NCBI GenBank assembly: GCA_016177765.1
Contig: JACOUP010000008.1
Location: 1,025,165 to 1,089,164 of the forward strand
DNA from: Deltaproteobacteria bacterium
Lineage (GTDB): Bacteria; UBA10199; JACPAL01; JACOUP01
Reading direction: 5' to 3'
Length of the DNA stretch: 64,000 nt
Shown piece by piece: positions 28,516 to 61,237 of the stretch. Position numbers and translations under genes: made by a program. Numbering within the stretch: the stretch's first letter is position 1; each line of letters starts with the position of its first letter. The notes beneath the pieces were generated by a model. The model was not told where the DNA came from. It saw only the letters and a program-made list of their open reading frames with translations, and made no database searches.

Positions 28516-30687
28516 ATGATGACCTCCATTAATGAAAAACTGACACAGGCAATGGCGGATGGTTATCTGAGCCAATCCGAGTGGGATAGCTTCAAAGAAG
28601 AGATCAAGTCCTCTTGGTCGGATGGGGGTCAGGAAGGGCTCAATAGTTTTATCAGTGATGTTGCCGATCGTCCGAATTGGGTAGTCGATCCTGCCATTTT
28701 GGAGAAGTGGGGCAAGGGGACAGGTCAAGGGATTGAGGGGGGACCTGTTTCGGAGATCCAGAAACGGCAGGACCAGGCCGCCCGTGTCAAGGCCTTGCTG
28801 GAAGAGAAGGTCGGGGACAAGGTTCTGAGTGAGACCGATTGGGACAGTTTAAAGGGAGAGATCGGTTCTGTTTGGGACAAAGGGGGGTTGGCCGGGATTA
28901 TTTTATTCTTGGCAGGTGATCATGATAATCACTGGGAGATTGAGGGGAATTTAAAGACAAGGATTCAAGAGAAGTTAGTCAAGCCTGGGTTTGTGAGTAT
29001 CGCACTTTTGAGTGGGATCAGGGTGCATGAGGAACCGGCCGCTCCACCACCACCGCCTGAACCTGCGGCGGAACCGGCACCAGAACCGATTCTTCCGCCT
29101 GCCGCAGGAACAGCGAGGCCAGACAGTCTTACTATTGATGAAGAAACCGGTCCGGGGGCGGGATCGCCTCCACCACCGGCCGCGCCACCTGCTCCTCCCG
29201 AGGCGGCCGCTCCACCACCTACTCCTCCTCCCCCTGCAACGGCTGAACGGCCCCTCAAAGCGGGCGAGGCGAGGGTCAAATGGCAGATTACCGACGGGGA
29301 TGGACACCCCCTGGCAGGGGTGACAATCACGTTGGGGGGGGAGGCCTCCGATGTTGAAGGAATGCCCCCTTATTCTGACCTTGTCGATGGAAATCCTCTC
29401 ACAACGGATAAAGACGGTTTCGCCTCCATCGACCTCCCCACAGGGCTCTTAAAATACACGACAGGGAAAAAGGGTTATCAGACCTATACCGTTGACGATG
29501 GGGCAGATGTAGATTTGGCGCCGGGCAAGATCTATACCCGTAATGTCCGGATGCCGCCGGTTGCCCATGTCCCGATTGATTGGAGGGTGACCGACCTCTT
29601 GAGGGAGACCTACCTGGAGGGGGCGACGGTTACCGTGGAAGGGACCTCCAGCGGCGACGGGGAAAGTTATGGTCCTGTTGTCTATCATACGGGTAAAGAG
29701 GGTCGGCTTCAGCGTGAGGAGGGTGGCAGAACAATCGCTCCGGCAACTATCCCTACCGGGGATTGTCGGGTCAAGGTCCACAAAGAGGGGTATCGGTCCT
29801 TTCCCGACGCGAGGATCACTATTGAAGGGGACAAGGTTGTCCGGCAATTTGCCCTGGTGGAGGAGGGACTCCCGTTACCGTCTGAGCTTGACGGGCAGAA
29901 CGTCTTTCGGTTGATTCGGGATACGGAGCTCCTTGTCCCGACAAATCGTGGATTCATCGGGAAAAAAAAGGACGATGACAAACGGAAGGCAATTAAGGAT
30001 CTGGAGAAGACAAGTAGCCTCCTGGGGATCGCCTTTGAAAAAACAGAGGCCCTAAGGCATGGAACGGTTGCCGCCGATCTTCTCCGGCTTGCCGAAGAGG
30101 TGGATTCCCTCCTTGTGGATCTCTACGATTCGATCCTGGATGCCGACGCGATTGTCCAGTGTCACCGGAGGCGCCTGAATCGGGAGGAGACGTCGTCGGA
30201 GCTGCAATACCTCCTCGCCTCGGCGCTGGATGTCTTGGGGGGACAACAGATATCAAGGGCCTCTATATTCCAGAAGTATGCCGAGGCGGTCCTTTATTAC
30301 AAAAAGTTGGGAGAAAAGGACCCTCATTACGACGAGGCCCAAAAGGCGTTAGGAAAGTTGGGGTATGTTGCCTTTCTGCCGAAGGTGACCTCCCTCTTTA
30401 ATCAGATCAATGCTGGAACATGGTCATCCATAAGGGAGACACTGCAGAGACAAGGCGGCCCTCAACAGGTAGAGGTGGGCCTTCGTGTGGATGATGATGG
30501 TTTTGTGGACGAGGTTGAGACCGATCCGAGGGCCTACCCTTTGGAAGCATTCTTCAGGGGGCGGAATATCGGGGTCTTCAGAAACCCTGAGAATGGAGGA
30601 AGGAAGGAAGAATCCTACCCCCTCGCCTTTGATATTGATTTTTCTGGGGATACCCCGAGGCTGATCTTGCCGGATATAGGGCCTTAG
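28516..30687 (+). CDS. Paralog B: same N-domain, Pro/Ala linker, carboxypeptidase-regulatory-like beta domains and a TPR-like helical tail
   Basis: About 85% DNA identity to paralog A across the N-domain. G8 tract at 29334-29341. Confidence 0.7.
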   Translation: MMTSINEKLTQAMADGYLSQSEWDSFKEEIKSSWSDGGQEGLNSFISDVADRPNWVVDPAILEKWGKGTGQGIEGGPVSEIQKRQDQAARVKALLEEKVGDKVLSETDWDSLKGEIGSVWDKGGLAGIILFLAGDHDNHWEIEGNLKTRIQEKLVKPGFVSIALLSGIRVHEEPAAPPPPPEPAAEPAPEPILPPAAGTARPDSLTIDEETGPGAGSPPPPAAPPAPPEAAAPPPTPPPPATAERPLKAGEARVKWQITDGDGHPLAGVTITLGGEASDVEGMPPYSDLVDGNPLTTDKDGFASIDLPTGLLKYTTGKKGYQTYTVDDGADVDLAPGKIYTRNVRMPPVAHVPIDWRVTDLLRETYLEGATVTVEGTSSGDGESYGPVVYHTGKEGRLQREEGGRTIAPATIPTGDCRVKVHKEGYRSFPDARITIEGDKVVRQFALVEEGLPLPSELDGQNVFRLIRDTELLVPTNRGFIGKKKDDDKRKAIKDLEKTSSLLGIAFEKTEALRHGTVAADLLRLAEEVDSLLVDLYDSILDADAIVQCHRRRLNREETSSELQYLLASALDVLGGQQISRASIFQKYAEAVLYYKKLGEKDPHYDEAQKALGKLGYVAFLPKVTSLFNQINAGTWSSIRETLQRQGGPQQVEVGLRVDDDGFVDEVETDPRAYPLEAFFRGRNIGVFRNPENGGRKEESYPLAFDIDFSGDTPRLILPDIGP

Positions 30688-30740
30688 TCCCCCTCACCCC
30701 AACCCTCTCCCGCAAGGGGAGAGGGGGAATTTGTCAATTT
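30688..30740 (+). terminator. GC-rich hairpin terminator after paralog B
   Basis: CCCTCTCCC-gcaa-GGGGAGAGGG with outer arms TCCCCCTC / GAGGGGGA and a T-rich tail. Confidence 0.55.
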
Positions 30741-30783
30741 TCTTGATCTCAGCGGTCTGATCTTATAGGGATCATCGTTAGCG

Positions 30784-32253
30784 ATGGCCCCCTCCGGTGT
30801 TTCTGCCACTGTTTATGACAGTCTATTCGAGAAGATGTCAGACAATCATTTTACCTCGTCTGAGTGGGATGGTTTGAAGAATTCAATCAAGGATCACTGG
30901 TCGGATGGGGGTCAAGAAGGTCTGGATCATTTCATCAGGGAGGCGGCTTCTCGGGCCGGTTGGGTGGTTGACCTTCCGGTGGTGGAGAAATGGAGGGGGG
31001 CAATCGGTTACGGTCTCGACGAGAAGTCTGTTCATACGGTCTGGGTGAGGAGTCTGCTGGAAGAGAAGGTCGGGGACAAGGGTGATTCACCTAAGGTTTT
31101 GAGTGAGGTGGACTGGGATGACCTGAAAGATGAGATCAGTTCGGTCTGGGACAAGGGGGGGTTGGCGGGGATCCGGTTATTTCTCTCCGGGTGTGGGGGA
31201 CGATGGACGATCGAGGGGAGTCTCAAGACAAGGATCCAGACCAAACTGGTTGATACAAATTTTATTGAAGCCGCTTTATTGAGTGGGATTGCGGTCTATA
31301 CACCACCCCCTCCACCGGTTCCTGAACCTGGGCCGCCAGAACCCCCGGCGGTAAGGCCTCCGGCACCACCCCTGCCCCCTGCTGGTCGCTTGGCCCCAGT
31401 CCTGCCCGGTGGGCCGTTGCCACGCAAACCGGTAGTCCGGTTATCCCTCCATCTGGTGGATAAATCCAACAAACCGATTTCAGGGGCGGAGGTCACCTTT
31501 GGCGGGACGGCGACGGATGGGACGGCGTATTCCCTCCTGGGGAAGGTCACGACGGACAGAAACGGACGCTTGAAGCGGGCCGAATTTCATCCCGGGAAGG
31601 TCACTCTGCATATTTCCAAAGAGGGGTACCAGCCGGTCGATCAGGAATTGGAGATTAGGCCGAAGATGACTCCGGAGATGACGATTGATCTCCAGAGACT
31701 GATCGACCTGGAGGGAGAGGCCCTTTTTGCCGAGGTGAAAGAGATCCTGGCCCAAGGGAAGAGGTCAGAGAGGGGTCCGCCGGCCGTTGTTGAGGAGGCG
31801 ATGGTGGCGTTGCGGGAAGGGGAGGAGAGGCTCAAGGCCTTTCTGGCAAAGGTGGCTCACCCAAAGACCGATTCGAGGCAGGATCGATCCCTCCGTGAAG
31901 AAGGGGAAGAACTCTTGAAACGTCTCCTTTTTGGTCTCGCCCAGCTCTATGAAAAGCAGGAAAAATACGACGAGGCGATCGCTATCTACCGGCAACGGTC
32001 AAAAGAGGGTTTCTTCCGTTATCTGATCGCGGGGGACCTTGAGGCCAAGGGGGATTTGGTTAAGGGGGACAAGCCGGCCGCTGTTGCCTCCCGTCGAAAG
32101 GCCTACACAGAGGCAATTGCCGAGTACCGGGCCTACGTCGACTGGCATGACCGGCAGGGGGCGAGACTGGAAGGGATCTCCGTGAGGGAGGAGGCGGAAG
32201 AGGCGATAGCCCGGCTCCAGAAGGCCCTTGCGGCAAAGAGGCCCAACGAATAA
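30784..32253 (+). CDS. Paralog C: same N-domain (with a 15-nt palindromic-element insertion), Pro-rich linker, carboxypeptidase-regulatory-like domain and TPR-like tail
   Basis: MSDNHFTSSEW... N-domain; GDSPK insertion at 31078-31092 relative to A, B and D. Confidence 0.7.
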   Translation: MAPSGVSATVYDSLFEKMSDNHFTSSEWDGLKNSIKDHWSDGGQEGLDHFIREAASRAGWVVDLPVVEKWRGAIGYGLDEKSVHTVWVRSLLEEKVGDKGDSPKVLSEVDWDDLKDEISSVWDKGGLAGIRLFLSGCGGRWTIEGSLKTRIQTKLVDTNFIEAALLSGIAVYTPPPPPVPEPGPPEPPAVRPPAPPLPPAGRLAPVLPGGPLPRKPVVRLSLHLVDKSNKPISGAEVTFGGTATDGTAYSLLGKVTTDRNGRLKRAEFHPGKVTLHISKEGYQPVDQELEIRPKMTPEMTIDLQRLIDLEGEALFAEVKEILAQGKRSERGPPAVVEEAMVALREGEERLKAFLAKVAHPKTDSRQDRSLREEGEELLKRLLFGLAQLYEKQEKYDEAIAIYRQRSKEGFFRYLIAGDLEAKGDLVKGDKPAAVASRRKAYTEAIAEYRAYVDWHDRQGARLEGISVREEAEEAIARLQKALAAKRPNE

Positions 32254-43175: not shown

Positions 43176-45575
43176 TCAGTTGGCCTCAAGGAGTACGTCG
43201 AAGGAACCGGAGATAGTTCCAGTGAGGGTCTGATCGCTTTCGACGCCGTTGGTGACGACACGTTTTTTACCGCTCATATTGGCCGTAAAGGTGCCGGTCA
43301 TCCGGCTCCCCCCCGTTTCGCCATAACTGGTCAGGGTAATCGTTCCCCCCGTTGAGCCGAAGACCACCTGTTCCCCGTTATCATCATGGGTGATCTTGGG
43401 AGAGTTGAAGATGATACTGGCAGAGCCGGTATTTTGCTCGAAGACGGTATCGGTTTCGTTCAGGTTGTAGGTATTGCCGGCATTGATATCGTCAGGGTCG
43501 GTAATGATATTGACCATTGTTTGAGTGAGATCTGTGGCTGAGGCCCCTTCGGAGGCGAAGGCGGTGGGGAGGTTAATCCGTTTGACATCCCCCGTAAAGG
43601 TGCCGAAGCCGCCAACGATCGTCTTGGGGTCGAACGAGATATTGGCGCCGTTGATCTTGATCGTGGCCGAAAAACTGTTTGCCGTCGTTGTCGTTTCCTC
43701 AGCAACCTTGGCCAGCTCAAAGTCGACATCAATCCGTCCGATGGTGGCGGCATTGGAAATGACCACGGTTAACACGTCGCCGGTTGAAACACCAAACCCC
43801 TTGATCCCGACCGAATTCCCGGACATTTCCGTCCCGACGGCGGCCCCGGCCCGGTAAACCGCGGCACGAACGGCATTACCGACGGCCCCGGCACTGGGGG
43901 AAAGGGTGAGGGTGACATCAACGCCGTTTTCGACCGCCTTGGTCGGGGTGATCTTCAAGACCTTGGTGGCAAATTCGTTGATCTTCTTCACGGCACCGGT
44001 CAGGCTGGAGTCTTTGAGTTCTTCCGGGTCGACTGTTTTGGCGACGATCGATTTGGCGGAAAAGAGGTTGGTGTTCAAGACACCGGCGGCTGTTTCTCCG
44101 GAGCGAAGGACGCTGTCGCTGGAATGTTCAATCGCCCGGTCTCTCGCGTATTTGGCATAGACGGTGGCGAGGTCCTTTTTAAATTTGCCCTGGAGGGTTG
44201 CGTCGAGGGCGTCGGTGACGGTGTCCCAGGGAGGGCCGAGTGGCGCCGACTTGGTCCCGTCCGCCACGAGCGCATCGATCCCTGCCTTGAGTTTGGCATA
44301 ATAGGTCTGGAGGTAGCTGAGACTTTTGTTGTTGTAGACACGGCCGACGTAGGCGAAGAAATCCTGATTGGAATAAGCCTCCGAACCGCCGGCGTTTGGA
44401 ACCAAAAGATAATTGGAGAGGATATGCGTTTCGGTTGCGGTAGCGGAGCGGACCTGCGGGGTGGTTGCCGCCGTGTCGATTGTTACTCCGTAGGTGGCAG
44501 CACTCCCCTCGGCGGAACCCTGAAGGGTATCCCCAAAACCGGTGTCGTAGCCATTTTGGACCGAATGGAACATCTCATGGGCCACCGAGGCGAAGACAGT
44601 CCCCAGGGCGTTGGTGGCGGTGGTGTCGGCGATTCGGGAAAAACCGACGTAGAGGATCCCGAAGCTGAAACCAAAATGATTGGCGCTTTCGTCAAGCCCT
44701 CCCGGTTCAAACTTACTTCCGCCATTGAAGAGAGAGATCGGCATATAATTCTTGCCGCCGACGGCAATAACCTGAAGGTTCGGTTGTCGGAAACCGGCGG
44801 CCTGGTAAATGGCGCCGGCGGCCACCCCGTTATTGCTGACCCTCTGGACAATCACCGTTTGGATCTGGGCATCGGTCAGGCTGGCGGCAGGGATGTTCAA
44901 GATACCGGAGATGACAGTCCTTAGATTGGGGTCCCTCGGGTTGTAATAGCTGATCCACAAATTGGTGCTCCACGGGGCCTCCGCCGTTGCCTCTTTGGAG
45001 GGGTCCAGGGTCATCGACGAGCCCTCGGACGATGTGGCGGTCTGCAGGTTGGGGTTGTAGACGACAGTGTAGATGGCGTCTTTGGGAAGTCCCTTTAGCT
45101 TGAGGGTGAGTTGGGAACCGCTCAAACTTCCAGGAACCCAGAGGGTCGTTTTGTTGTCCGGATCAAAGACCTTGATGTAAACCTTGATGGCGTTCTGGTC
45201 TGCCGCCGGGATGGAGGAGTTATCCAGCTGAACCGTCATCGTAACATCCTGGGTGGTGATAAAGTGCATGATGGAATCAAGATTTAAATCGTAGGAACTG
45301 GAAACGGTTTTTTCTCCCTCTTCCAGGAGATCGGAGGGGGTGTCGACGATTTCGATTTCCGGTTGGGCCCGGAGGGCGGCTGGCATGCTGTCATCGGCGA
45401 TAATGACCTGAAACTTACCATCCTCTGAGGTGAAGGTTCCGCCGGTGACACCATCTTCGGTATACTCCGGATCTTCCTTGTCCGGGGTGTCGTCATCGTC
45501 GTCATCCCCGCCACAGTAAGAAAGCGAGAAGACAAGGGAACAAATCAGCAGACCCAACAGGAAAAGCCGCCGCAT
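43176..45575 (-). CDS. Large lipoprotein with HExxH zincin-like motif and poly-Asp tract
   Basis: Lipobox LSYC followed by GGDDDDDD; VAHEMFHSVQ zinc-binding motif; 799 aa. Confidence 0.6.
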   Translation of the reverse strand: MRRLFLLGLLICSLVFSLSYCGGDDDDDDTPDKEDPEYTEDGVTGGTFTSEDGKFQVIIADDSMPAALRAQPEIEIVDTPSDLLEEGEKTVSSSYDLNLDSIMHFITTQDVTMTVQLDNSSIPAADQNAIKVYIKVFDPDNKTTLWVPGSLSGSQLTLKLKGLPKDAIYTVVYNPNLQTATSSEGSSMTLDPSKEATAEAPWSTNLWISYYNPRDPNLRTVISGILNIPAASLTDAQIQTVIVQRVSNNGVAAGAIYQAAGFRQPNLQVIAVGGKNYMPISLFNGGSKFEPGGLDESANHFGFSFGILYVGFSRIADTTATNALGTVFASVAHEMFHSVQNGYDTGFGDTLQGSAEGSAATYGVTIDTAATTPQVRSATATETHILSNYLLVPNAGGSEAYSNQDFFAYVGRVYNNKSLSYLQTYYAKLKAGIDALVADGTKSAPLGPPWDTVTDALDATLQGKFKKDLATVYAKYARDRAIEHSSDSVLRSGETAAGVLNTNLFSAKSIVAKTVDPEELKDSSLTGAVKKINEFATKVLKITPTKAVENGVDVTLTLSPSAGAVGNAVRAAVYRAGAAVGTEMSGNSVGIKGFGVSTGDVLTVVISNAATIGRIDVDFELAKVAEETTTTANSFSATIKINGANISFDPKTIVGGFGTFTGDVKRINLPTAFASEGASATDLTQTMVNIITDPDDINAGNTYNLNETDTVFEQNTGSASIIFNSPKITHDDNGEQVVFGSTGGTITLTSYGETGGSRMTGTFTANMSGKKRVVTNGVESDQTLTGTISGSFDVLLEAN

Positions 45576-45618: not shown

Positions 45619-45636
45619 ATACTCGGGGACTAGGAT
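45619..45636. repeat. 18-bp direct repeat (17/18) of the tRNA-Gln 3' end: candidate distal att site
   Basis: atactcggggactaggat here versus atgctcggggactaggat at 46784-46801. Confidence 0.7.
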
Positions 45637-45701
45637 CAATGAATACAATATGTTATGGCCACGAAATAGGGCCTTGACAATACCTACCCCCTAAGCATAG
45701 A

Positions 45702-46100
45702 ATGTTCCGCATGAAGCCGGTTTCAACCAGGACTTTGCAGGTCTTTAAACAGTGGGGCAAGGAAGGGGGGAAGAGGCGGGCCAAAAACCTTTCCCCTTCG
45801 GCCCGTCAGGCTATTTCGAGGCATGCCGCTCAAACGCGTTGGGGTCTTCAAAAAACTCATGAGTCATCCATGTCCAGTGTGCGTCTTAGAGGAGCGCTTT
45901 GGGGAAATCCGGTCTATTTGGAAGAGGTTCTCTCGCATGGAAGCTTGAGAGACTGGAAAGAACTGCGCCGCAGAATTGCCGATCACCCCTTTGGCGCTGA
46001 AGCCGGTGCGCTCGAGAAAGTTCTTAATGCGATCAGTATCTACGGAACCATTTCTTTATGGAAAGGGATCCTTGGCAATTTACGGGGGAATTTTTTGTGA
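45702..46100 (+). CDS. Hypothetical small protein, candidate partner of the AbiEii toxin
   Basis: Overlaps the downstream AbiEii gene by 43 nt. Confidence 0.35.
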   Translation: MFRMKPVSTRTLQVFKQWGKEGGKRRAKNLSPSARQAISRHAAQTRWGLQKTHESSMSSVRLRGALWGNPVYLEEVLSHGSLRDWKELRRRIADHPFGAEAGALEKVLNAISIYGTISLWKGILGNLRGNFL

Positions 46101-46771
46101 AAAAAGAAGCCGATACATTTCCTGCATGGGAAAAATTACTTTCCGCACAAGCTCTCTTCCAATCCCATTTTCCGGAGTCTGTTCTTGTTGGCGGAACAGC
46201 CGCGGCACTTCATGCCGGTCATCGTGTCTCTATGGATGCCGATCACGTTTTGCCTGATCTTAAAAAACGATTCGCCGAAATTTTGGCTCAAGTGGAGAAA
46301 GAAGCCGGCTGGAAAACAAGCCGGATGGAACCTCCGGTTCTCATTTTGGGAAACTTTCAAGGGGTCCGGACCGGTATTCGCCAGTTGATCCGGAAAAAAC
46401 CACTGGAGACAACGATGGTGAAAGGACTTCGCGTCCCGACGGTTGCCGAAATTTTAAGAATCAAAGGCTACTTAATTACCAAGAGAAACACGACGCGGGA
46501 CTTTATTGATTTTGTCGCCCTTTTCGACCATTTCGGGGCTGAAAAATCTTTGAAGGCGCTGGCTTCATTGGATGATCTCTATCCGCAAGAGGGGGAGGAG
46601 TCTGTATTAAAACAACTCGCCACACAGCTGGCTGAACCCAAGCCCTGGGATCTGACAGAGACTGATTTAAGTCACTACAAATCACTCAAAGAACCTTACA
46701 CCGACTGGAATGAAATCAAACGGCGAGCAGGGGCGGCGGGTCTTCGAATTTTGGAATCACTTTTGGTTTAG
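46058..46771 (+). CDS. Nucleotidyltransferase AbiEii/AbiGii toxin family (DUF1814)
   Basis: Signature LVGGTAAALHAGHRVSMDADHV (GGTAL...HR.S.D.D); 237 aa. Confidence 0.7.
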   Translation: MERDPWQFTGEFFVKKEADTFPAWEKLLSAQALFQSHFPESVLVGGTAAALHAGHRVSMDADHVLPDLKKRFAEILAQVEKEAGWKTSRMEPPVLILGNFQGVRTGIRQLIRKKPLETTMVKGLRVPTVAEILRIKGYLITKRNTTRDFIDFVALFDHFGAEKSLKALASLDDLYPQEGEESVLKQLATQLAEPKPWDLTETDLSHYKSLKEPYTDWNEIKRRAGAAGLRILESLLV

Positions 46772-46786
46772 GGTATTTGTTTTATG

Positions 46787-46857
46787 CTCGGGGACTAGGA
46801 TTCGAACCTAGATTTACGGAGTCAGAGTCCGCAGTCCTGCCGTTAGACGATCCCCGA
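46787..46857 (-). tRNA. tRNA-Gln (anticodon CTG)
   Basis: Reverse complement folds as acceptor TCGGGGA/TCCCCGA, anticodon loop CTCTGAC, T-loop GGTTCGAATCC, discriminator G. Resembles E. coli tRNA-Gln. Confidence 0.75.
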
Positions 46858-46901: not shown

Positions 46902-47942
46902 TCAACCGAAGAAAACCTCTGCCAGCTTATAGAAAGCGGGATCCACCGTCTTGATCTTCTTGACCACCTGTTGGAGCGGGAGGGAAATTATTTTGTTCCC
47001 CTGGATCCCGACCATCCGGCCGAATTTTCCGCTATGGGCGAGATTAACCGCCTCCACGCCGAGGCGGGTGGCGAGGATCCGGTCATAGGCGGTTGGCGTT
47101 CCTCCCCTCTGAACATGCCCCAGTTCCGTCACCCGGATCTCAAACGAGGTCCTTTTCTGCAACTCCCTCGCGAGAAGCATCCCGATACCCCCCAGTTTGA
47201 TGTCGCCGTACTCGTCTTTTTTGGTGGGGGTCTTGAGGATCTTTTTCTTCCTCCCAACCCCTTCGTAGAGCCGGGCGTCTTCGGAAACGACGATGATGCT
47301 AAAATTCTTGCCGCGGCTGGCTCGTTGCTTCAGAAGCCTTATCAAGTGATTGAGTGAAAAAGGGACTTCCGGAATCAAGATGGCATCCCCCCCGCCGGCA
47401 ATGCCGGCACAGGCGGCGATCCAGCCGGTGTGACGTCCCATCACCTCCACGATCATCACGCGGTGGTGGGATTCTGCGGTGGTGTGGAGACGATCGATGG
47501 CGTCCGTCGCAATTTGCACCGCGGTATCAAAACCGATCGTGACATCGGTCCCCCAAAGATCGTTGTCGATCGTTTTGGGGATGCCGATCGTCGGGATGCC
47601 GGCCTTGTGGAAGGCATAGGAGACCCGCATCGTTCCCTCGCCGCCGATCGCCAATACGCCGTCCAGGGGGGAACGCCGGAAGTTTTCAATGACCTTTCTC
47701 TTCATCTCCGGTGTCTTCAAAGGGTTGATACGGGTCGTCCCGAGGATCGTTCCCCCCATCGGGAGGATGCCGGAGACCGAGGCGATATCGAGCGGACGGA
47801 AATGAGAAGTCAGAAGCCCTTTCCATCCTTCCAGGATGCCATCGATGCCAATGTTGAGGGAAACGGCCCGCCGGACAACCGCACGAATGGCGGCATTCAG
47901 ACCGGGGCAGTCACCCCCCCCTGTGAGCACTCCGAGTTTCAT
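46902..47942 (-). CDS. pfk: 6-phosphofructokinase
   Basis: MKLGVLTGGGDCPGLNAAIR N-terminus and the GGEGT / MGR motifs. Confidence 0.88.
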   Translation of the reverse strand: MKLGVLTGGGDCPGLNAAIRAVVRRAVSLNIGIDGILEGWKGLLTSHFRPLDIASVSGILPMGGTILGTTRINPLKTPEMKRKVIENFRRSPLDGVLAIGGEGTMRVSYAFHKAGIPTIGIPKTIDNDLWGTDVTIGFDTAVQIATDAIDRLHTTAESHHRVMIVEVMGRHTGWIAACAGIAGGGDAILIPEVPFSLNHLIRLLKQRASRGKNFSIIVVSEDARLYEGVGRKKKILKTPTKKDEYGDIKLGGIGMLLARELQKRTSFEIRVTELGHVQRGGTPTAYDRILATRLGVEAVNLAHSGKFGRMVGIQGNKIISLPLQQVVKKIKTVDPAFYKLAEVFFG

Positions 47943-48044: not shown

Positions 48045-49061
48045 ATGACCCAGGAAGGGACCCTCTATGAAAAACTGGAGGGGGAGAAGGTCCGCTGTTT
48101 TTCCTGCGGCCACCGGTGCGTGATTCCCGAAGGACGGATCGGGATTTGCAAGGTCCGCTTTAATAAAGGAGGGAAACTCCAGGTCCCCTTTGGTTATGTG
48201 GGGGCGCTCCAGTGCGACCCGATCGAAAAAAAACCGTTCTTTCATGCGATGCCAGGAACCGAGGCCTTCTCCTTCGGGATGCTGGGGTGTGATTATCACT
48301 GTCCGAATTGCCAAAATTGGCTGACCAGTCAGGCCCTGCGCGACCCAAAGGCGATAGCCCCTCCGCAGAAGGTGACGCCCAAAGAATTGGTGGCGATGGC
48401 CAGAGAAAGGGGGGCCTCGACACTCGCCTCCACTTACAATGAACCACTGATCACCAGCGAATGGGCCGTGGCTGTCTTTCAAGAGGCGAAGAGGGCGGGA
48501 TTCAAGACCGCCTATATCTCCAACGGCAACGGGACCCCACAAGTGATCAATTATCTAAGGCCTTGGGTTGATCTTTATAAAGTAGACCTCAAGGGTTTTA
48601 ACGACAAACATTATCGGGAACTGGGGGGGCTGTTGGATCCTGTCCTTGAAACGATCCAGGCTATTCACGAAAAACAGTTCTGGCTGGAGGTTGTTACCCT
48701 CATCATCCCCGGCTTTAATGATTCGGATGAAGAGTTGAGGCAGATCGCCCGGTTTCTCGCCAAGATTTCAAAAGAGATCCCATGGCATCTGACCGCCTTT
48801 CACAAGGATTACAAAATGAGGGGTCCGGCCAACACACCGGTGGAGACTCTTGTTCGCGCCGCGCGGATCGGTCAGGAGGCAGGGCTCCACTTTATCTACG
48901 CCGGTAATCTGCCGGGAAAGGTAGGGGATCTGGAAAACAGCTATTGTCCCTCTTGCAAGACCCTCCTGGTTGAAAGGGTTGGGTACACAATCTTGAAGAA
49001 CAACCTCCAGTCTGGCTGTTGTCCCCAATGCCTGCAAAAAATCCCGGGGGTTTGGGGCTAA
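48045..49061 (+). CDS. Radical SAM enzyme (AmmeMemoRadiSam-system-like) with N-terminal Cys-rich ribbon
   Basis: CFSCGHRC...C ribbon then CDYHCPNC (Cx3Cx2C) motif. The track ORF's 5' part is a shadow of pfk; start ATG 48045 (or GTG 48009). Confidence 0.75.
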   Translation: MTQEGTLYEKLEGEKVRCFSCGHRCVIPEGRIGICKVRFNKGGKLQVPFGYVGALQCDPIEKKPFFHAMPGTEAFSFGMLGCDYHCPNCQNWLTSQALRDPKAIAPPQKVTPKELVAMARERGASTLASTYNEPLITSEWAVAVFQEAKRAGFKTAYISNGNGTPQVINYLRPWVDLYKVDLKGFNDKHYRELGGLLDPVLETIQAIHEKQFWLEVVTLIIPGFNDSDEELRQIARFLAKISKEIPWHLTAFHKDYKMRGPANTPVETLVRAARIGQEAGLHFIYAGNLPGKVGDLENSYCPSCKTLLVERVGYTILKNNLQSGCCPQCLQKIPGVWG

Positions 49062-51274
49062 AGGGAGGAAACTACCTCAATCGTACTGCGGTTTGAAATA
49101 GAGGAATTTTCAGGGTCATCCAGGAGGTGGATGATCCGTTCAGAACGGGGCGGCATCGGGCAATCCAGCCTCGGACGCACCGCGATCTTCATCTCCGGGG
49201 GGAGCTGGTGTTCTTCCGTGTAGAGCGAAACGGTATCACCCCCGCAGACGAGGGTATGGGGGGGTGGTGTCAGAGAGATAATTCTACGGATATTGTCGGT
49301 GATACTCCAACCTTCGAGGGGGGAGAAGACCTCAATTTCTGGAAAATCCCGGACCTTGTTCACCAAGATAGACTGACGGGCGGCATGGGAGAGAATCGGT
49401 CCCTTGTGGGTTCGTGACCGGTTGACGGTGAAGACAACCAATCTTTTCAGGCCCAGCTGACGGACTGCCTGAAGCCAGAGAGAGAGATGCCCCTGGTGGG
49501 TCGGGCTCAAGGTCCCGCAGGCGATTCCTGTCCCGCCAAAGGGGAGATTGCCGGCCAGGAAATTGGCCCGCGCATTTTCGATTTCCTTCTGGAGCAACGG
49601 ATTGAGGACCTCCCGGATATTGACGAAGAAACGTTTCCGGGTGGCGATCCCCGGGTTTTGGACGCCGATACGACTCCGGTTCAGGAAAGGGGGAGGAAAA
49701 TGGGGGATCTTTTCAATCCCGCCGAATGGTTTGACGACCAGTTTCTCCATCTCTTCATCGGTCATCTCAATCATGAAGGTAGGGAAATAAAGGGGTCTTC
49801 TTTCTTTCTGAGAACGCCGCCAAACCTCCCCCATCCGGTGTTGCCCCTGGACATGAACCATCCCGTACGAAGGACTTTTGAAGGTGATTGGCGGTTGGGT
49901 CAGGGCCGTTTCTTCGATCTTGCCCGTCGGTTCATAAAGGAAATAGAACTTTACCAGATTCGGATTGTCGTTGTAGCCGGTGTATCGGTTGATCGTGGGC
50001 CAGGGGGCGCAGTCGGTATTCTTTAAACAGAGCCAAGTCAGCTCTGAATTGTTGAGTGTCTTGAAGTCGAGGCTCCCCCGGTTGATCCGGGCCCCGGCGG
50101 AAGTATTGGCCAAAAAAGAATTAGTCGCCCGCAAATTACCCGACTCGGCCTCTTCATTGACATTGATCCACTCCAGAGAGGTGCTGCGGAGAGAGGCGAC
50201 ATCTTCTTCCCCGTCCTCAAAAGAGGGGATTTTTCGGTCCGGAATCACCTGACCGTGAAGGGTAATCTCCACGTTGAGCGGTTTTCCATCCCAGTCCAGC
50301 CCCCGTTCAATAGGGTCTGTACCCTGTTTGGCGACCGGCCTGATTTTGGGGAGGGTAATGATGGAGAGGAGGCCGCCCAAGATGGAGCACAATCTTTGCG
50401 TACCATGGGCGAGACCCCACAACGGCGGCCCGGGGATCCCCTTCTCAAAGGCCATCAGACCGGCGAGCGAATAGTAGGTCAGGAACTTGTTAATCGGCCG
50501 GACGGCCCACCTTTTTAACCGTTCAGTTTTTTTAGGGTCTTCCATGAAGAGGTCGATCGGAAGGGTGAAGGCGATGGAGGCCAGTGCCTGGTCGCTTGAC
50601 TTGATGATGAGGGAGCTCCAGGAAAGACCGATCCCGGCGCAGGTATTGTAAAAAGAATTAGCCAACCAGTTTTCGAACGCCTGTTCGATCGGGGCATAAA
50701 TTTTTCCGAGGGAAGCGGCCCCCAGGCTGAAATGGTGTCCCCGGATCTGGAAGAATTCGATATGGTAGGGAAACCGTTTCTTGGCCCATTGGCCGACATC
50801 CGCCATGATCCCCTGCCTCACAATGGTTCGAAAACGGGCGATAAAACTGAGGACAAAGGAGCCTGCAAACTGCGACCAGTGCGGTCTTAAAGCAATGGCA
50901 CCGACAAAAAAACTGGCGGTGGCGGCAAGAATCGTAACAACGCCTCCGGCCATACCGATTTCAAAATCCCTGAGGAGGAGACGCCAGTCCTTGACAATCT
51001 GGTGAAAGCGACGGAAAGAGACCCGCGCAAAGTGACGACTGCCGACGGCCCACGACTCTGAGGCCTCCAGAAAACCTTGTTTGTAGAGATGGTAAAGCGC
51101 CGCGTTAGTCCGGTGACGAAGGAGGGGATGACCAGAAGAGAAAGAGATTGCTTCGCTGGATTCCTGAATAGTTTCCTTCAATGGCCGAAAAAATACTTTA
51201 GTGCTTCTCTCCGGAAAGGCTAGCGCCGTTTTGAGGGGACTGTCAAGGACGTTTGGTTGTTGCACTTTTATCAA
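49058..51274 (-). CDS. Large protein: unknown ~500-aa N-terminal region fused to a C-terminal cytidylyltransferase / NadD-like domain
   Basis: C-terminal FGGTGIACGTLSPTHQGH (HxGH motif); TTG start; 738 aa. Confidence 0.5.
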   Translation of the reverse strand: MIKVQQPNVLDSPLKTALAFPERSTKVFFRPLKETIQESSEAISFSSGHPLLRHRTNAALYHLYKQGFLEASESWAVGSRHFARVSFRRFHQIVKDWRLLLRDFEIGMAGGVVTILAATASFFVGAIALRPHWSQFAGSFVLSFIARFRTIVRQGIMADVGQWAKKRFPYHIEFFQIRGHHFSLGAASLGKIYAPIEQAFENWLANSFYNTCAGIGLSWSSLIIKSSDQALASIAFTLPIDLFMEDPKKTERLKRWAVRPINKFLTYYSLAGLMAFEKGIPGPPLWGLAHGTQRLCSILGGLLSIITLPKIRPVAKQGTDPIERGLDWDGKPLNVEITLHGQVIPDRKIPSFEDGEEDVASLRSTSLEWINVNEEAESGNLRATNSFLANTSAGARINRGSLDFKTLNNSELTWLCLKNTDCAPWPTINRYTGYNDNPNLVKFYFLYEPTGKIEETALTQPPITFKSPSYGMVHVQGQHRMGEVWRRSQKERRPLYFPTFMIEMTDEEMEKLVVKPFGGIEKIPHFPPPFLNRSRIGVQNPGIATRKRFFVNIREVLNPLLQKEIENARANFLAGNLPFGGTGIACGTLSPTHQGHLSLWLQAVRQLGLKRLVVFTVNRSRTHKGPILSHAARQSILVNKVRDFPEIEVFSPLEGWSITDNIRRIISLTPPPHTLVCGGDTVSLYTEEHQLPPEMKIAVRPRLDCPMPPRSERIIHLLDDPENSSISNRSTIEVVSSL

Positions 51275-53780: not shown

Positions 53781-54538
53781 ATCTGGGGAGACGTCTCTTC
53801 AAGGTTTGGCTCCGCGACTTAATCGTCTGGTCCAAATACTGGCACACCAGTCTCGTTGGGGCGTTGGGGGAACCGGTTCTCTACTTTGTCGGGATCGGTT
53901 ATGGTCTCGGTTCCTTTATCCCGCCGATTGAGGGGATCCCGTATGTTCAATACCTCGCCCCGGCGCTGATCGCCTCGTCGGTGATGAATAGCGCCTCCTT
54001 TGAAACCACTTTCAGTTCCTTTACCCGGATGGAGAAACAAAAGACCTATGCCTCCATTGCGGCGACACCGATCAGCATGGAAGAGGTGGTGGCGGGGGAG
54101 ATCCTCTGGGGGGCGACCAAGGCCTGTCTGGCCGGGCTCGTGATGTTGATCGCGATGGTGGTCGCCGGCCTCATCACTCCCTTGGGGGCGTTGTGGATTG
54201 CCCCGGTGATGGGGATTACGGCGGTTCTTTTTTCCGGGCTCGGGATGCTCGCGACTTCCTATGCCCCGGATTATGATTTCTTTACCTATTATTTTACCCT
54301 TTTTTTAGAACCGATGTTTCTTTTCTCCGGCACTTTTTTTCCACTCTCCGGGATGCCGGTCTTTTTACAGAAGATTGTCTGGATCCTCCCGCTCACCCCC
54401 GCCGTACACCTCTGCCGGACGCTTGCCCAAAAGGGATTCGATTGGAATCTTCTCCTCCCCTTTAGCTGGATTCTCCTGCTGGCCCTGTTTTTTTGCTGGT
54501 TCGCGATCCGGCGGATGGTCAAGAGGCTGGTGGTTTAA
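53777..54538 (+). CDS. ABC-2 type transporter permease
   Basis: 6 TM helices; overlaps the ATPase stop. Confidence 0.75.
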   Translation: MNLGRRLFKVWLRDLIVWSKYWHTSLVGALGEPVLYFVGIGYGLGSFIPPIEGIPYVQYLAPALIASSVMNSASFETTFSSFTRMEKQKTYASIAATPISMEEVVAGEILWGATKACLAGLVMLIAMVVAGLITPLGALWIAPVMGITAVLFSGLGMLATSYAPDYDFFTYYFTLFLEPMFLFSGTFFPLSGMPVFLQKIVWILPLTPAVHLCRTLAQKGFDWNLLLPFSWILLLALFFCWFAIRRMVKRLVV

Positions 54539-54595
54539 GGTTTTATTGACTATTTCTGTCTTGAATCCTGATGGAGAGGGTGCAATACTGTCCCT

Positions 54596-54823
54596 GTGAG
54601 GCACGATAACATTATCCAGCGTTCAAAAGAACTTTTGGGGGGGACACCCGTTTTTGCTGGCACAAGGGTTCCCATCCAGAATCTCTTAGACTATCTGGAA
54701 GAGGGTAAGTCCACCACTGATTTCTTGGAAGATTTTCCGACTGTCAGTCACGAACAGGTTCTCAATATCTTGGAAGTAGCCAAAGAAACTCTTGTGAGTG
54801 GGCCTCATGCGCGTATTGCTTGA
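54596..54823 (+). CDS. DUF433-family antitoxin-like protein
   Basis: 75 aa; overlaps the downstream gene by 26 nt. Confidence 0.55.
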   Translation: MRHDNIIQRSKELLGGTPVFAGTRVPIQNLLDYLEEGKSTTDFLEDFPTVSHEQVLNILEVAKETLVSGPHARIA

Positions 54824-55127
54824 CGAATGTCTCCCCAAAAAATTGAAAGGCGACCTCCTAGAGTATCACGAGGTTTTCACTGTTCCTGAAATGAGTTGGG
54901 CAGGAAAGAAAAACGGCGAATTGTTGAAATTGGCCGCCTCCAAATTCGACCTGTTTCTCACGGCGGACCAAAATCTTACTTATCAGCAAAATCTGGAATC
55001 GGCACAAATTGGCGTTATCATTTTGGTCACAAAAAATAATCGTTTGGAATCCTTCCAACGTCTAATGCCCAAAGTGAGGCAACTGTTACAACAGGGTCCC
55101 GTCAAGGGTATTGTTAAGGTGCTTTGA
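54798..55127 (+). CDS. DUF5615 (PIN-like) putative toxin
   Basis: 109 aa with a Mut7-C/PIN-like pattern. Confidence 0.55.
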   Translation: MGLMRVLLDECLPKKLKGDLLEYHEVFTVPEMSWAGKKNGELLKLAASKFDLFLTADQNLTYQQNLESAQIGVIILVTKNNRLESFQRLMPKVRQLLQQGPVKGIVKVL

Positions 55128-55147
55128 AAAAAACTTGGGTTGGTGGT

Positions 55148-56047
55148 TTAGCGGTAAAACCCCTTTGTTTTTTCAGTCAGTTCTCGCAATTTCCGGTTAT
55201 CGATCACCTTGCCGCGGCGGAGGACGAGGCGGTTGTTGCAGAACAGTTTGACTGCGCGGGCGAGGGTCTTTGCCTCCAGTTTTTTTCCGCGTTCGATAAT
55301 TTCTTCAAGTGGTGTCTTGGTCTTGTCAAACCGGAACGCCTCCTGGCAGATGATCGGTCCTTCGTCGAGATCGGTGGTGACAAAGTGGGCGGTGACGCCG
55401 GTCACCTCCACCCCCTTGTGGTACGCCTGTGAATAGGCCCGTGCGCCCGGAAAAGAGGGGAGGAGCGACGGGTGGACGTTGATGATTTTCCCTTCGTAAC
55501 GAAAACAGAACTCCGGGGAGAGGATCTGCATGTAACGGGCGAGGATGATCCCATCGACGTCAAAACCGGCCAGTTTTTTCAAAATTTTTTCCTCATGTTC
55601 CTTTTTACGGAGAGACGGGTTGTAGTAAAAGGGGACGTGATATCTGGCGGCGATCGGTCGAAGGTCGGTCCGGTTGGAAAGAACCATCACCGGTTTTCCC
55701 TTGATCTCTCCCCTCTTCATCTGTCTTAAGAGTTCTTCCAGACAGTGAGGCTCTTTGGTGGCGAGGATGGCGATCTCTTTTAATTTTTTTTCTTTTTCCG
55801 GATGAAAACTGATCTCCATCCGGATCTTTCGGGCCACCTCCCGGAGTCCTTTCAGGAAATGGGGGAGGGGGGTTCGCATCTCCTTAAAATCAACCACCAT
55901 GTTCATGACGAGAACCCCTTCTAAAATCCTCTGGTCGATATCCTCGATGTTGATATTATTTTGGGAGAGGTAGCCGGTGACCGCCGCAATAATCCCTTTG
56001 TGGTCCGGCCCGGCAACACGAATGCGAGCGATCTTTGGGTGAGACAT
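55148..56047 (-). CDS. purU: Formyltetrahydrofolate deformylase
   Basis: N-terminal ACT domain plus a formyltransferase domain. Confidence 0.85.
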   Translation of the reverse strand: MSHPKIARIRVAGPDHKGIIAAVTGYLSQNNINIEDIDQRILEGVLVMNMVVDFKEMRTPLPHFLKGLREVARKIRMEISFHPEKEKKLKEIAILATKEPHCLEELLRQMKRGEIKGKPVMVLSNRTDLRPIAARYHVPFYYNPSLRKKEHEEKILKKLAGFDVDGIILARYMQILSPEFCFRYEGKIINVHPSLLPSFPGARAYSQAYHKGVEVTGVTAHFVTTDLDEGPIICQEAFRFDKTKTPLEEIIERGKKLEAKTLARAVKLFCNNRLVLRRGKVIDNRKLRELTEKTKGFYR

Positions 56048-59719: not shown

Positions 59720-60356
59720 AGATCTGTTCTTCTTTGAGGGGCAGTGTTACCGCCAGGGTTTTCGGTTTGTCGCGGGGTTAGATGAGGCAGGTCGTGGTTG
59801 TCTTGCCGGTCCTGTCGTTGCCGCCGCCGTTGTTTTTCCACCCTATTTAACGATTGCTGGCGTGGATGACTCCAAAAAATTAAGTCCGCAGAAGAGGGAA
59901 GAACTCTACCCCCAAATTCTGGAAAAGGCGATCGCCTGGGGGGTTGGGGTTGTGGGGCCGGATGAGATTGACCGGATGAATATCCTTGAGGCCTCCAAAA
60001 AGGCGATGGAGCTGGCACTCGGTTATTTAAAGGTTCCGCCGGATCACCTCCTGATCGACGGTAATTTCAGGATCACCTCGGCCTACCCGCAAACACAGAT
60101 TATCCGGGGGGATTCCCTTTCTTTTTCAATCGCCGCCGCGTCGATCATTGCCAAGGTCACCCGGGACAGGACAATGGTTGAGTGGCAGGAGAGATACCCG
60201 CAGTTCCAGTTTTCACGCCATAAAGGGTATGGGACAAAGATTCATTTGAAGGAGATTCGGACCTACGGCTTAACCGAACTTCACCGGAAGAGCTTCGCCC
60301 CCTGCCGTCAAATCTCCATGGGTGAATCACCCTTGCTGTCTATTTCAACTTTTTAA
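59658..60356 (+). CDS. rnhB: Ribonuclease HII
   Basis: [16 protein letters not shown] active-site motif. True start is probably near 59720 (non-ATG). Palindromic element at 60320-60332 encodes the C-terminal GESPL. Confidence 0.8.
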
Positions 60357-60690
60357 CTTCGGTAAAGAACGATTGGATTGTTTTGAGATACTGGTTCTGT
60401 TCGATGCCCAGGTAGTCATGAACGCCGAGGTTGCGATCCTCCAGAAAGGCGAGCCATTTTTCGACATTGTCAATAAGCCCCATGCGGCCGGCCAGCTTGA
60501 TCGCCTCTTTGGGGCTGTAGGCCTCAAACCCCTCATCATTGGCCTTTTGTTTAAAATGCTTCCAGGCGTATTCAAAACAGATCTCAAATTTTTTGGCGAT
60601 ACCCGAATAATAAAAATCGTCTTTTTCGGCCTTGTTCAGAAAGGAGAGGGCATGCTCCAGATCGTCAATGGCCTCTTTTAGCTTCTTCAT
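60340..60690 (-). CDS. HEPN-domain protein (nucleotidyltransferase substrate-binding, HI0074 family)
   Basis: 116 aa; overlaps the upstream MNT gene. Confidence 0.65.
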   Translation of the reverse strand: MKKLKEAIDDLEHALSFLNKAEKDDFYYSGIAKKFEICFEYAWKHFKQKANDEGFEAYSPKEAIKLAGRMGLIDNVEKWLAFLEDRNLGVHDYLGIEQNQYLKTIQSFFTEVKKLK

Positions 60691-61237
60691 GGCGACTCCT
60701 TTTGTTCAAGGCAATCCAGCTGGTGAGCGACCCTCCCAGAAAAACCGATCCCTTGGAGGCCTGTCGCAAAAAATCGTTGTCGGCCCGGTTGAGATTGACG
60801 AGGTCGATTTTATAGGGAGAAGATTCTTCAAAGTCCCCCTTCTTTTGAATCATACTCCGGTAAATTTCGTGGAAGAGCCCCTTTTCGGCATAGATACCGA
60901 TATCCCAATCCGCATATTTTTGCGCCTTCTGCCTGGCTCGTGAACCGAACAGAACAAAAGCTACGGAAGGAAACTCCTCTTGGAGTTGACTGATCAGGGG
61001 GGCGATCGGTTCGAGTGGGGATAAAGAGGACTCTTCACTCTGGATCAAAATTTCTGCCGGTTTCAGCCGGAGTCTTGAAAGGAGCTTTTCAAAGGCGGCC
61101 GGAAAAACGCCATGACCCGAAAGATAGTAGTGAATGGTGTTCCGATGGAGACCGAGATCCTTCGCCAAGGCGCCAATGGAGGGATAACCCTGCTCCTTCA
61201 AGGCCTCCTCAAATCGCCGGGCATCAATGATATGCAC
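60665..61237 (-). CDS. Minimal nucleotidyltransferase (MNT) with N-terminal HTH
   Basis: LFGSRARQ...DWDIGIY (GSx...DxD) motif; HTH LAKDLGLHRNTIHYYL. Confidence 0.65.
   Translation of the reverse strand: MHIIDARRFEEALKEQGYPSIGALAKDLGLHRNTIHYYLSGHGVFPAAFEKLLSRLRLKPAEILIQSEESSLSPLEPIAPLISQLQEEFPSVAFVLFGSRARQKAQKYADWDIGIYAEKGLFHEIYRSMIQKKGDFEESSPYKIDLVNLNRADNDFLRQASKGSVFLGGSLTSWIALNKRSRHEEAKRGH

Follow-up and report, generated by a model that had tools for sequence, protein, structure and literature searches.

A toxin–antitoxin islet between direct repeats of a tRNA-Gln 3' end in a deltaproteobacterial genome

A tRNA-Gln gene of a Deltaproteobacteria bacterium (GenBank assembly GCA_016177765.1, contig JACOUP010000008.1) is accompanied by a second, displaced copy of its own 3' end, and the 1147 bp between the two copies (45637-46783) are almost exactly one toxin–antitoxin (TA) operon. 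Positions are those of the window, the whole 64-kb stretch of DNA that was analysed (1,025,165 to 1,089,164 of the contig). This islet is tentatively read here as the relic of an element that entered the tRNA gene at its 3' end and subsequently lost its integrase. The finding is real and had mostly been read correctly in an earlier note, made from the sequence alone, and is of moderate interest as it stands.

The tRNA gene, the repeat and the enclosed DNA

The tRNA-Gln gene is one of two tRNA genes in the window and lies on the minus strand at 46786-46857. It was identified by ARAGORN with the anticodon CTG, scores 59.2 bits against Rfam RF00005 (gathering score 29) and adopts a normal cloverleaf fold; the gene does not encode CCA. 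This intact copy is taken as the regenerated target gene. The right copy of the repeat, ATGCTCGGGGACTAGGAT (46784-46801), is attL-like and spans the tRNA 3' end, taking in its last 16 bases plus 2 of trailer. The left copy, ATACTCGGGGACTAGGAT (45619-45636), is attR-like and constitutes the displaced 3' fragment. The two are in direct orientation and identical at 17 of 18 positions, 15 of these being consecutive. The earlier note had described this tRNA gene and its repeat, and ARAGORN, Rfam and shuffled sequence all bear it out.

Followed in the tRNA sense, the repeat opens with the final 2 nt of the T-loop, continues along the 3' strands of first the T-stem and then the acceptor stem, and takes in the discriminator G and 3 nt of trailer. 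The copies differ only at the base next after the discriminator, hence the mature tRNA part is the same in both. The partial copy is found on the 3' side of the intact gene, downstream of it and in its orientation, which is the outcome of an element integrating into a tRNA gene and bringing a replacement 3' end (PMC4383910). Repeats left by tRNA-targeting integrases are reported to range from 15 to 221 bp with a mode of 20-25 and, in most cases, to start at the T-loop or in the 3' half and to span T-loop, T-stem and acceptor 3' half; the 3' end is one of the sublocations distinguished (bioRxiv 10.1101/2020.11.02.365908). The 18-bp repeat falls inside this usual range in both length and position. 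The putative att sequence is ATCCTAGTCCCCGAG. The empty-site junction is reconstructed as GGTTCGAATCCTAGTCCCCGAGTATTTTTCGTTGTCTTTCAGCCC and the junction of a circular form as ...CTTTTGGTTTAGGGTATTTGTTTTATGCTCGGGGACTAGGATCAATGAATACAATATG. A remnant of a second tRNA-Gln gene was also considered for the left copy and rejected, as just 18 nt are left and their edges are sharp.

The two copies are the only matches to the 18-mer in the window at up to three mismatches. By naive calculation, an 18-mer would recur with no more than one mismatch somewhere on the two strands of 64 kb with a probability of ~1e-4. Shuffled sequence gave an expected 0.05 matches, and none of 100 shuffles contained two or more. 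In a control of 300 random 1.1-kb segments of the window, four had flanking repeats whose BLAST E-value was as good, mostly in a region of tandem paralogues that probably accounts for most of these repeats. The region (27451-32253) contains three adjoining genes of 354, 723, and 489 aa with related N-termini (MADGYLSQxEWxSFKE...), the middle one of which, at 723 aa, carries a CarboxypepD_reg domain.

These figures bear on whether the arrangement could be coincidental, with the 18-mer being a chance match or the relic of an old local tRNA duplication and the TA operon having arrived there independently. The ~1% of random segments with equally good flanking repeats would allow this, as would the lack of an observed empty site. 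Against it, the match is the precise 3' end of the tRNA, sits on the right side in the right orientation and delimits both a low-GC segment and the cassette exactly, where only 1e-4 to 0.05 matches are expected in the window. Coincidence is considered very improbable.

The enclosed DNA differs in composition from its surroundings, with a GC content of 0.47-0.49 inside the insert and 0.55-0.58 in the flanks. For the cassette itself the value is 0.491, compared with 0.55 on either side. Non-cassette DNA amounts to 36 + 12 bp. The 36-bp spacer (45637-45672) separates the displaced fragment from the cassette and has no counterpart in other copies of the cassette, with which BLASTN homology starts at 45672/45673. 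The 12-bp spacer (46772-46783) lies between the toxin stop and the tRNA repeat. No recombinase signature occurs between the repeats, which agrees with the earlier description of a two-gene, TA-like content without an integrase.

The toxin and its antitoxin-like partner

The operon begins with a sigma-70 promoter, TTGACA-18-TAGAAT (45674-45703, plus strand), that matches 11 of 12 consensus positions. Its spacer holds an imperfect palindrome, ATACCTA-CCCCC-TAAGCAT, which is perfect (ATGCTTA-CCCCC-TAAGCAT) in two related cassettes, L003 and L007. Seven cassette contexts were compared, namely the window and six other chromosomal contexts in related metagenomic genomes. In their alignment, the -35 box, the first gene's ATG, and most of the promoter spacer with the palindrome in it are invariant or nearly so, and the sequence further upstream is unrelated. 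The palindrome is the most conserved DNA in the whole cassette and therefore suggests an operator, which by analogy with AbiEi and type II antitoxins probably serves autorepression. The ATG of the first gene lies 7 nt past the -10 box; the mRNA is therefore probably leaderless or nearly leaderless.

The first gene encodes the 129-aa antitoxin-like partner (45711-46100, plus strand), within a maximal open reading frame (ORF) that extends from 45702. Homologues of 119-132 aa start with MKP..., as the window protein does with MKPVS..., and for this reason the start is placed at ATG 45711. The second gene encodes the 224-aa toxin (46097-46771, plus strand), a DUF1814/AbiEii/MenT-type nucleotidyltransferase. 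Its GTG start at 46097 overlaps the antitoxin stop as GTGA, follows a GGGGGA Shine-Dalgarno sequence and yields the same 224 aa as the NCBI call (P0001, locus tag HYS22_07660). These two starts most likely replace the ones given in the earlier note, 45702 for the partner and 46058 for the toxin. Gene calls at this operon vary even where the DNA does not. Logan contigs L008 and L009 as against L011 are all 100% identical to the window in DNA, and gene callers assign 118 aa or 237 aa to the toxin there and 76 aa to the antitoxin. The 118-aa toxin gene in two of these same-strain contigs is a gene-calling difference only. Given such divergent calls on identical DNA, protein catalogues under-represent the real 129-aa and 224-aa products.

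The assignment of the toxin to the AbiEii/DUF1814 nucleotidyltransferases, as first made in the earlier note, is upheld by Pfam, PADLOC, motifs I-IV and the fold of its model. Only its N-terminal part aligns with Pfam AbiEii (PF08843), scoring 27.3 bits where the gathering score is 22.5, and residues 108-190 of the 237-aa maximal ORF are covered by PADLOC AbiEii models. DUF1814 proteins are defined by motifs I/II, hG[G/S]-x(9-15)-DhD with an Arg in II, motif III, K...R, and motif IV, +DxxD (PMC3985639). The toxin has V31-G32-G33, 13 residues and D47-A-D49 as motifs I/II, with the family-specific R43 four residues ahead of D47 like R63/D67 of AbiEii. Motif III is represented by K123 and R130, seven residues apart like K173/R180, and motif IV by R134-D135-F-I-D138. 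All four motifs are invariant across 34 aligned homologues. An AF2 model of the toxin (pLDDT 75, pTM 0.76) finds its best PDB fold matches in JHP933 of H. pylori (E 7.8e-6), MenT1 (2.6e-5), ANT(2'')-Ia, and MenT4 (7e-4).

The toxin has roughly 3000 homologues. Those on plasmids are 41-56% identical and annotated as AbiEii/AbiGii, and no relative was found in the viral contig collection searched with the toxin. MenT toxins are described in PMC7450476 and PMC10435456 as extending tRNA acceptor ends. By analogy with MenT and AbiEii, the toxin likely acts by adding nucleotides to tRNA acceptor ends, which would arrest translation.

The partner is conserved at full length in 17 homologues and is encoded directly upstream of a toxin homologue wherever this was checked. 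It comprises a basic N-terminal module of ~45 aa with the motif WGxxGGKKRAxxLSxxxRxxIAxxAAxxRW and a helical C-terminal module of ~70 aa with the motif DWxxL..PFG..A..L..VL...YG...LW. The partner has no match in Pfam, NCBIfam, PADLOC or the PDB by sequence, profile or fold, and a profile search of the PDB, which includes AbiEi, returned nothing. No Pfam family covers the GGKKRAxxLSxxxRxxIAxxAAxxRW motif of the N-module. The AF2 model of the partner is all-helical (pLDDT 71) and has no fold match.

A profile search of 1.8 billion representatives with the partner found only 209 relatives, in which the two modules are visible. These relatives are 45-130-aa proteins built from the two unannotated modules. 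The N-module, encoded at 45711-45860 in the window, also occurs in free-standing proteins of 45-100 aa or as tandem repeats in one protein (P0288, P0325, and others). The C-module also occurs alone, at 75-85 aa, or fused to Xre-type helix-turn-helix (HTH) domains. On plasmid pKF715A a 75-aa gene with a weak match to the C-module precedes a toxin homologue.

Antitoxins are usually built from a neutralising module and interchangeable DNA-binding modules. As the partner matches this architecture, we infer that the C-module would be the part that neutralises the toxin and the basic N-module the part that binds DNA and represses the promoter. The strong promoter with its palindromic operator would drive the 129-aa antitoxin and then the overlapping 224-aa toxin.

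The earlier note had called the pair an AbiEii toxin pair, which holds for the toxin and not for the partner, as it is not AbiEi. The pair resembles AbiE in being bicistronic with the antitoxin first, in its overlapping genes, in toxin motifs I-IV, and in a promoter palindrome (PMC3985639). It differs in that the partner is not an AbiEi of the COG5340 winged HTH (wHTH) plus C-terminal domain (CTD) type, and in the short toxin of 224 aa. Judged from sequence and models, the pair is not canonical AbiE, and the partner belongs to an unannotated, two-module antitoxin-like family that is paired with a short DUF1814 toxin. MenAT1 of M. tuberculosis, as described in PMC10435456 and PMC11375011, likewise combines a short DUF1814-type toxin with a small helical, non-AbiEi antitoxin. 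The toxin model aligns with MenT1 at a Foldseek E of 2.6e-5 and a TM of 0.52-0.61. In contrast to MenA1, to which it has no detectable sequence or fold similarity, the window antitoxin carries an extra basic N-module. In layout the pair is closer to MenAT1 than to AbiE. The combination of a short MenT/AbiEii-type toxin, an unannotated antitoxin, a very conserved promoter-operator and a first gene that is probably leaderless makes the operon a compact candidate for biochemistry.

The cassette in other genomes

In the six other contexts, BLASTN aligns the cassette at 66-79% DNA identity from the -35 box to the toxin stop codon or a point no more than ~50 bp from it. Loci L001 and L106 share one site, which has a peptidase M19 gene on one side and a small ORF on the other. 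In L003-L006 the cassette lies between a PAP2 gene and an ABC-F gene, in L107 it follows a TPR gene, and in L109 and L110 it follows glnA and lies beside PemK and ParDE pairs. L007 and L108 each represent a separate context of their own. None of these six contexts has a tRNA gene in the locus, and no integrase gene is called within ~5 kb in any of the seven. The recurrence of the same cassette in seven unrelated contexts indicates that the operon is horizontally mobile. Its GC content ranges from 0.46 to 0.58 and partly tracks that of the host, so some copies are old. The closest copies reside in genomes with a GC content of 0.42-0.46.

Locus L107, on a contig of Logan SRR22388267 (4488-5793), shows a second case of a cassette bracketed by a direct repeat. 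The cassette (4577-5687) is flanked by a repeat of 54-66 nt, of which 54 nt align at 81% identity (BLAST E 8e-7). The first 21 nt match at 20 positions, so that the 5' edge is near-identical and the remainder has diverged. Upstream of the cassette the repeat forms the end of the TPR gene itself. Downstream it encodes these last 22 codons once more, in frame and with the stop in the same place, and the translations read WPLMSSSALLSEIDAAMAAGK and WPLLSSSALLAEIDEAMAVRP, each ending at its stop codon. The spacers are 22 and 39 bp, and the repeat is unrelated in sequence to the 18-mer of the window. The islet in the window is therefore not unique, as the L107 cassette is also flanked by the duplicated 3' end of its neighbour, without a recombinase. 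Immediately downstream of the L107 cassette lies a canonical-looking AbiE-type pair of 202 aa and 252 aa with a Pfam AbiEii match (L107:5841-7204).

A third, weaker case is found in L109 (GCA_005240075.1, 4546-5716). The 3' half of the glnA terminator, CGCCTTTTTT(T)GTCC, is present on both sides of the cassette, at a distance of 12 bp ahead of it and 15 bp behind it, the second time without a matching 5' half. This repeat matches over 14 of 15 bp, is of low complexity and may be due to chance (E 0.19). The cassette is followed by the PemK and ParDE pairs, with which it forms a small TA cluster. The other four contexts have no flanking repeat above chance.

The repeats at these sites could also have arisen by a route other than site-specific recombination. 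Restriction–modification (RM) units, studied by Kobayashi's group, are addictive, have no mobility gene and insert into intergenic DNA or the ends of genes with a variable direct duplication, of tens of bp, of their target, and the repeats often span the start or stop of a neighbouring gene. The mechanism of this insertion is unknown (PMC3874152, PMC2853133). Applied to the islet, such an insertion would use no site-specific recombinase, and the tRNA 3' end would just happen to be the gene end it struck. Members of one cassette family are here flanked by unrelated repeats of 18 bp in the window, 54-66 bp in L107 and, weakly, 14/15 bp in L109. All three span the 3' end of a neighbouring transcription unit and leave the neighbour intact, and the spacers of 12-39 bp in these three contexts are unconserved. 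The lack of an integrase in all seven contexts and the agreement with the pattern described for RM units argue in the same direction.

Several observations argue against target duplication. Four of the seven contexts have no flanking repeat, nor do six other TA pairs in the loci analysed. In L107 identity is high only at the 5' edge, which fits a replacement 3' end carried by the element at least as well, and the L109 repeat is a T-run that may be chance. In the window the repeat lies on a classic integrase target and, at 18 bp, is below the threshold of a duplication >30 bp that Furuta used to exclude site-specific recombination (PMC2853133). The 54-66-bp repeat of L107, at 81% identity, is above it. 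The window and L107 cassettes resemble RM units in having direct repeats of varying length, an intact neighbour and no mobility gene inside or adjacent. They differ in that the route has been described for RM systems and not for TA systems, in that typical duplications are 46 to >400 bp compared with 18 bp in the window and 54-66 bp in L107, and in that the empty sites which define the RM class are missing for both cassettes. Target duplication is the main rival account of the islet's origin, possible but unlikely.

An extension of this idea makes the TA cassette, from promoter to stop, the mobile unit itself. It would insert at transcription-unit 3' ends, be they of a tRNA, a protein gene or a terminator, duplicating a variable length of target and using no dedicated recombinase, and the window and L107 would be two independent footprints of such movement. 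This proposal is speculative and rather doubtful. If movement of this kind took place, the contexts would provide several independent insertions for studying how TA systems move without mobility genes, which is a long-standing question.

Two other readings of the islet were rejected. A transposon-type target-site duplication was ruled out by the absence of inverted repeats or conserved ends, and by repeats that are variable in length and too long. An integron cassette was ruled out by the absence of attC and by the promoter that the operon brings with it.

Origin of the islet

We favour, at slightly short of an even chance, a tyrosine-integrase-type insertion at the 3' end of tRNA-Gln that was later reduced to an att-flanked TA remnant. 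A foreign segment, of which 1147 bp now remain, would have been inserted at the 3' end of tRNA-Gln(CTG) by a recombination event that restored the tRNA and left an 18-bp copy of its end displaced. The agent would be site-specific recombination of the tyrosine-integrase type at the 3'-end sublocation of the tRNA. The integrase and the rest of the original element would then have been lost, for which one deletion suffices, with one end just upstream of the promoter of the cassette and the other 36 bp away from the far att. The outcome would be an att-flanked remnant lacking an integrase, that is, a cis-mobilizable element (CIME).

The earlier note had read the repeats as the attL/attR footprint of site-specific integration. 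The non-random repeat, the geometry at the tRNA gene and the low-GC interior sustain this, and what weakens it is that target duplication explains the same picture. The L107 arrangement can also be seen as integration into a protein gene with a replacement 3' end borne by the element and in frame, which favours the integrase-type origin. AbiE stabilises plasmids that carry it (PMC3985639). As AbiE-type modules stabilise carrier DNA, loss would be least likely for an addictive module, and the remnant would probably have survived because its sole cargo is addictive.

A number of points weigh against this history. No integrase is called near the cassette in any context, and among window ORFs of at least 100 aa none has the HxLRH motif of tyrosine recombinases by a crude test. 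With so little DNA outside the cassette, decay would have to have trimmed the element almost exactly to the operon. The L107 spacers are likewise short and its repeat is unrelated, so that a property of the cassette seems to account better than independent decay for two such precise trimmings. Just 2 nt of the T-loop fall within the identity block, which gives no support to a crossover inside that loop. Neither an empty site nor a circular form of the islet was found among the relatives reached, and the window and the short metagenomic contigs yielded no full-length related element.

The search for an empty site relied on the host genes on either side of the islet. On the tRNA side, 6-phosphofructokinase (PFK) is encoded on the minus strand at 46902-47942, directly upstream of tRNA-Gln (Pfam PFK E 1e-105; P0141 100% identical). 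On the other side lies a minus-strand gene (43176-45575) of genome-like GC content for a 799-aa lipoprotein with an HEMFH motif and a weak match to the HExxH family NCBIfam MXAN_6640, which the earlier note had referred to as a protease. A promoter-like site of this gene (45612-45583, minus strand) follows the left repeat copy and a T-rich trailer. In the reconstructed empty site, 46 nt would separate the tRNA body from the lipoprotein gene downstream of it.

Six contigs from the same project with an identical PFK (L008-L013) are 100% identical across the islet and all carry it. Runs in which this strain is present are SRR12113383, -84, -85, SRR12113401, -20 and -30. The nearest other PFK, at 75% identity, is in L100, where upstream synteny is partly kept. 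L100 has no tRNA-Gln after PFK, so it offers no empty site to compare. The more distant PFK relatives in L101-L103 are not syntenic and also have no tRNA-Gln after PFK. A scan of the genome collection with PFK gave, among the matches listed, only distant PFK genes (at most 56% identity) from unrelated phyla. A scan of metagenome contigs with the lipoprotein gave only relatives of at most 34% identity without a tRNA, and an exact look-up of the lipoprotein gave no record. In the viral collection, the tRNA-Gln 3' end matched only phage tRNA arrays, which are irrelevant to att. One of these, in L104 (714-7347, IMG/VR), is an array of 24 tRNA genes in which a tRNA-Gln (TTG) shares a 22-nt 3' end with the tRNA-Gln of the window; it is unrelated to att.

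In the window a 738-aa protein is encoded on the minus strand at 49058-51274, with a C-terminal cytidylyltransferase-like domain (21.7 bits) as its sole family match. A 712-aa gene lies beside PFK in the same position in L100 (3858-5996), and the radical-SAM gene that separates the 738-aa gene from PFK in the window is absent there.

The islet might also be a functional, non-autonomous mini-element, a 1.15-kb unit with attL and attR that is excised and re-integrated by an integrase from another part of the genome, in the manner of island derivatives mobilised in cis or trans. Each att-like copy is intact, the two share 15 consecutive identical bp, the insert is compact at one operon plus 48 bp, and L107 has a second att-flanked copy with equally short spacers. 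CIMEs are, moreover, mobilisable by related elements (PMC5704250). Against current mobility, all six same-strain contigs carry the islet with no empty-site variant, and no integrase is known for it. At 66 bp, the att-containing junction of a circular form would leave too little room for arm-type sites such as lambda-like integrases use, and the unrelated repeats of each copy would call for a different integrase each time. An active mini-element is considered improbable.

If the islet is instead a decayed product of integration at tRNA-Gln, it can be compared with two described classes. CIMEs have lost the genes for integration and kept attL and attR (PMC5704250). The islet agrees with them in that it retains both att-like copies, here a tRNA 3'-end repeat, and holds cargo only, with no integrase or transfer gene between them. 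It differs in being far smaller than described CIMEs at 1.15 kb and in that no parental integrative and conjugative or integrative and mobilizable element (ICE/IME) with the same att is known. The tDNA islands detected by Islander (PMC4383910) share the regenerated tDNA, the displaced 3' fragment with its side and orientation both as required, and the foreign composition within. Unlike them, the islet does not pass the integrase filter, or at 1147 bp the 2-kb length filter. As 1.15 kb without an integrase is below such island-finder filters, relics of this kind are systematically missed and the tRNA fragments beside them are left unexplained. Nothing in the islet is categorically new; what is unusual is a very small, att-flanked, TA-only insert and a DUF1814 toxin with an unannotated two-module antitoxin. 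Were the history of insertion and loss correct, the islet would show how far an integrated element can shrink with its att sites and an addictive TA module surviving.

Two further TA-type pairs are present in the window. The first (54528-55150) is bordered by an ABC-2 permease gene and, on the other side, by a 299-aa gene that converges on it (55148-56047, minus strand). The pair comprises a putative DUF433-like gene of 75 aa (54596-54823), named from its sequence, and a DUF5615/PIN_10 gene (54798-55127). A 10-bp direct repeat, TGGTGGTTTA, overlies the stop of the permease gene and the stop of the convergent gene; it is suggestively placed, yet statistically weak, and may be chance (E 0.13). 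The second pair, on the minus strand at 60340-61237, is TA-like and includes a 190-aa protein with HTH and Pol-beta nucleotidyltransferase domains (Pfam Polbeta, NTP_transf_2). It is overlapped by a 116-aa ORF that looks, from its sequence, like an HI0074-type nucleotidyltransferase substrate-binding protein, and the pair has no flanking repeat.

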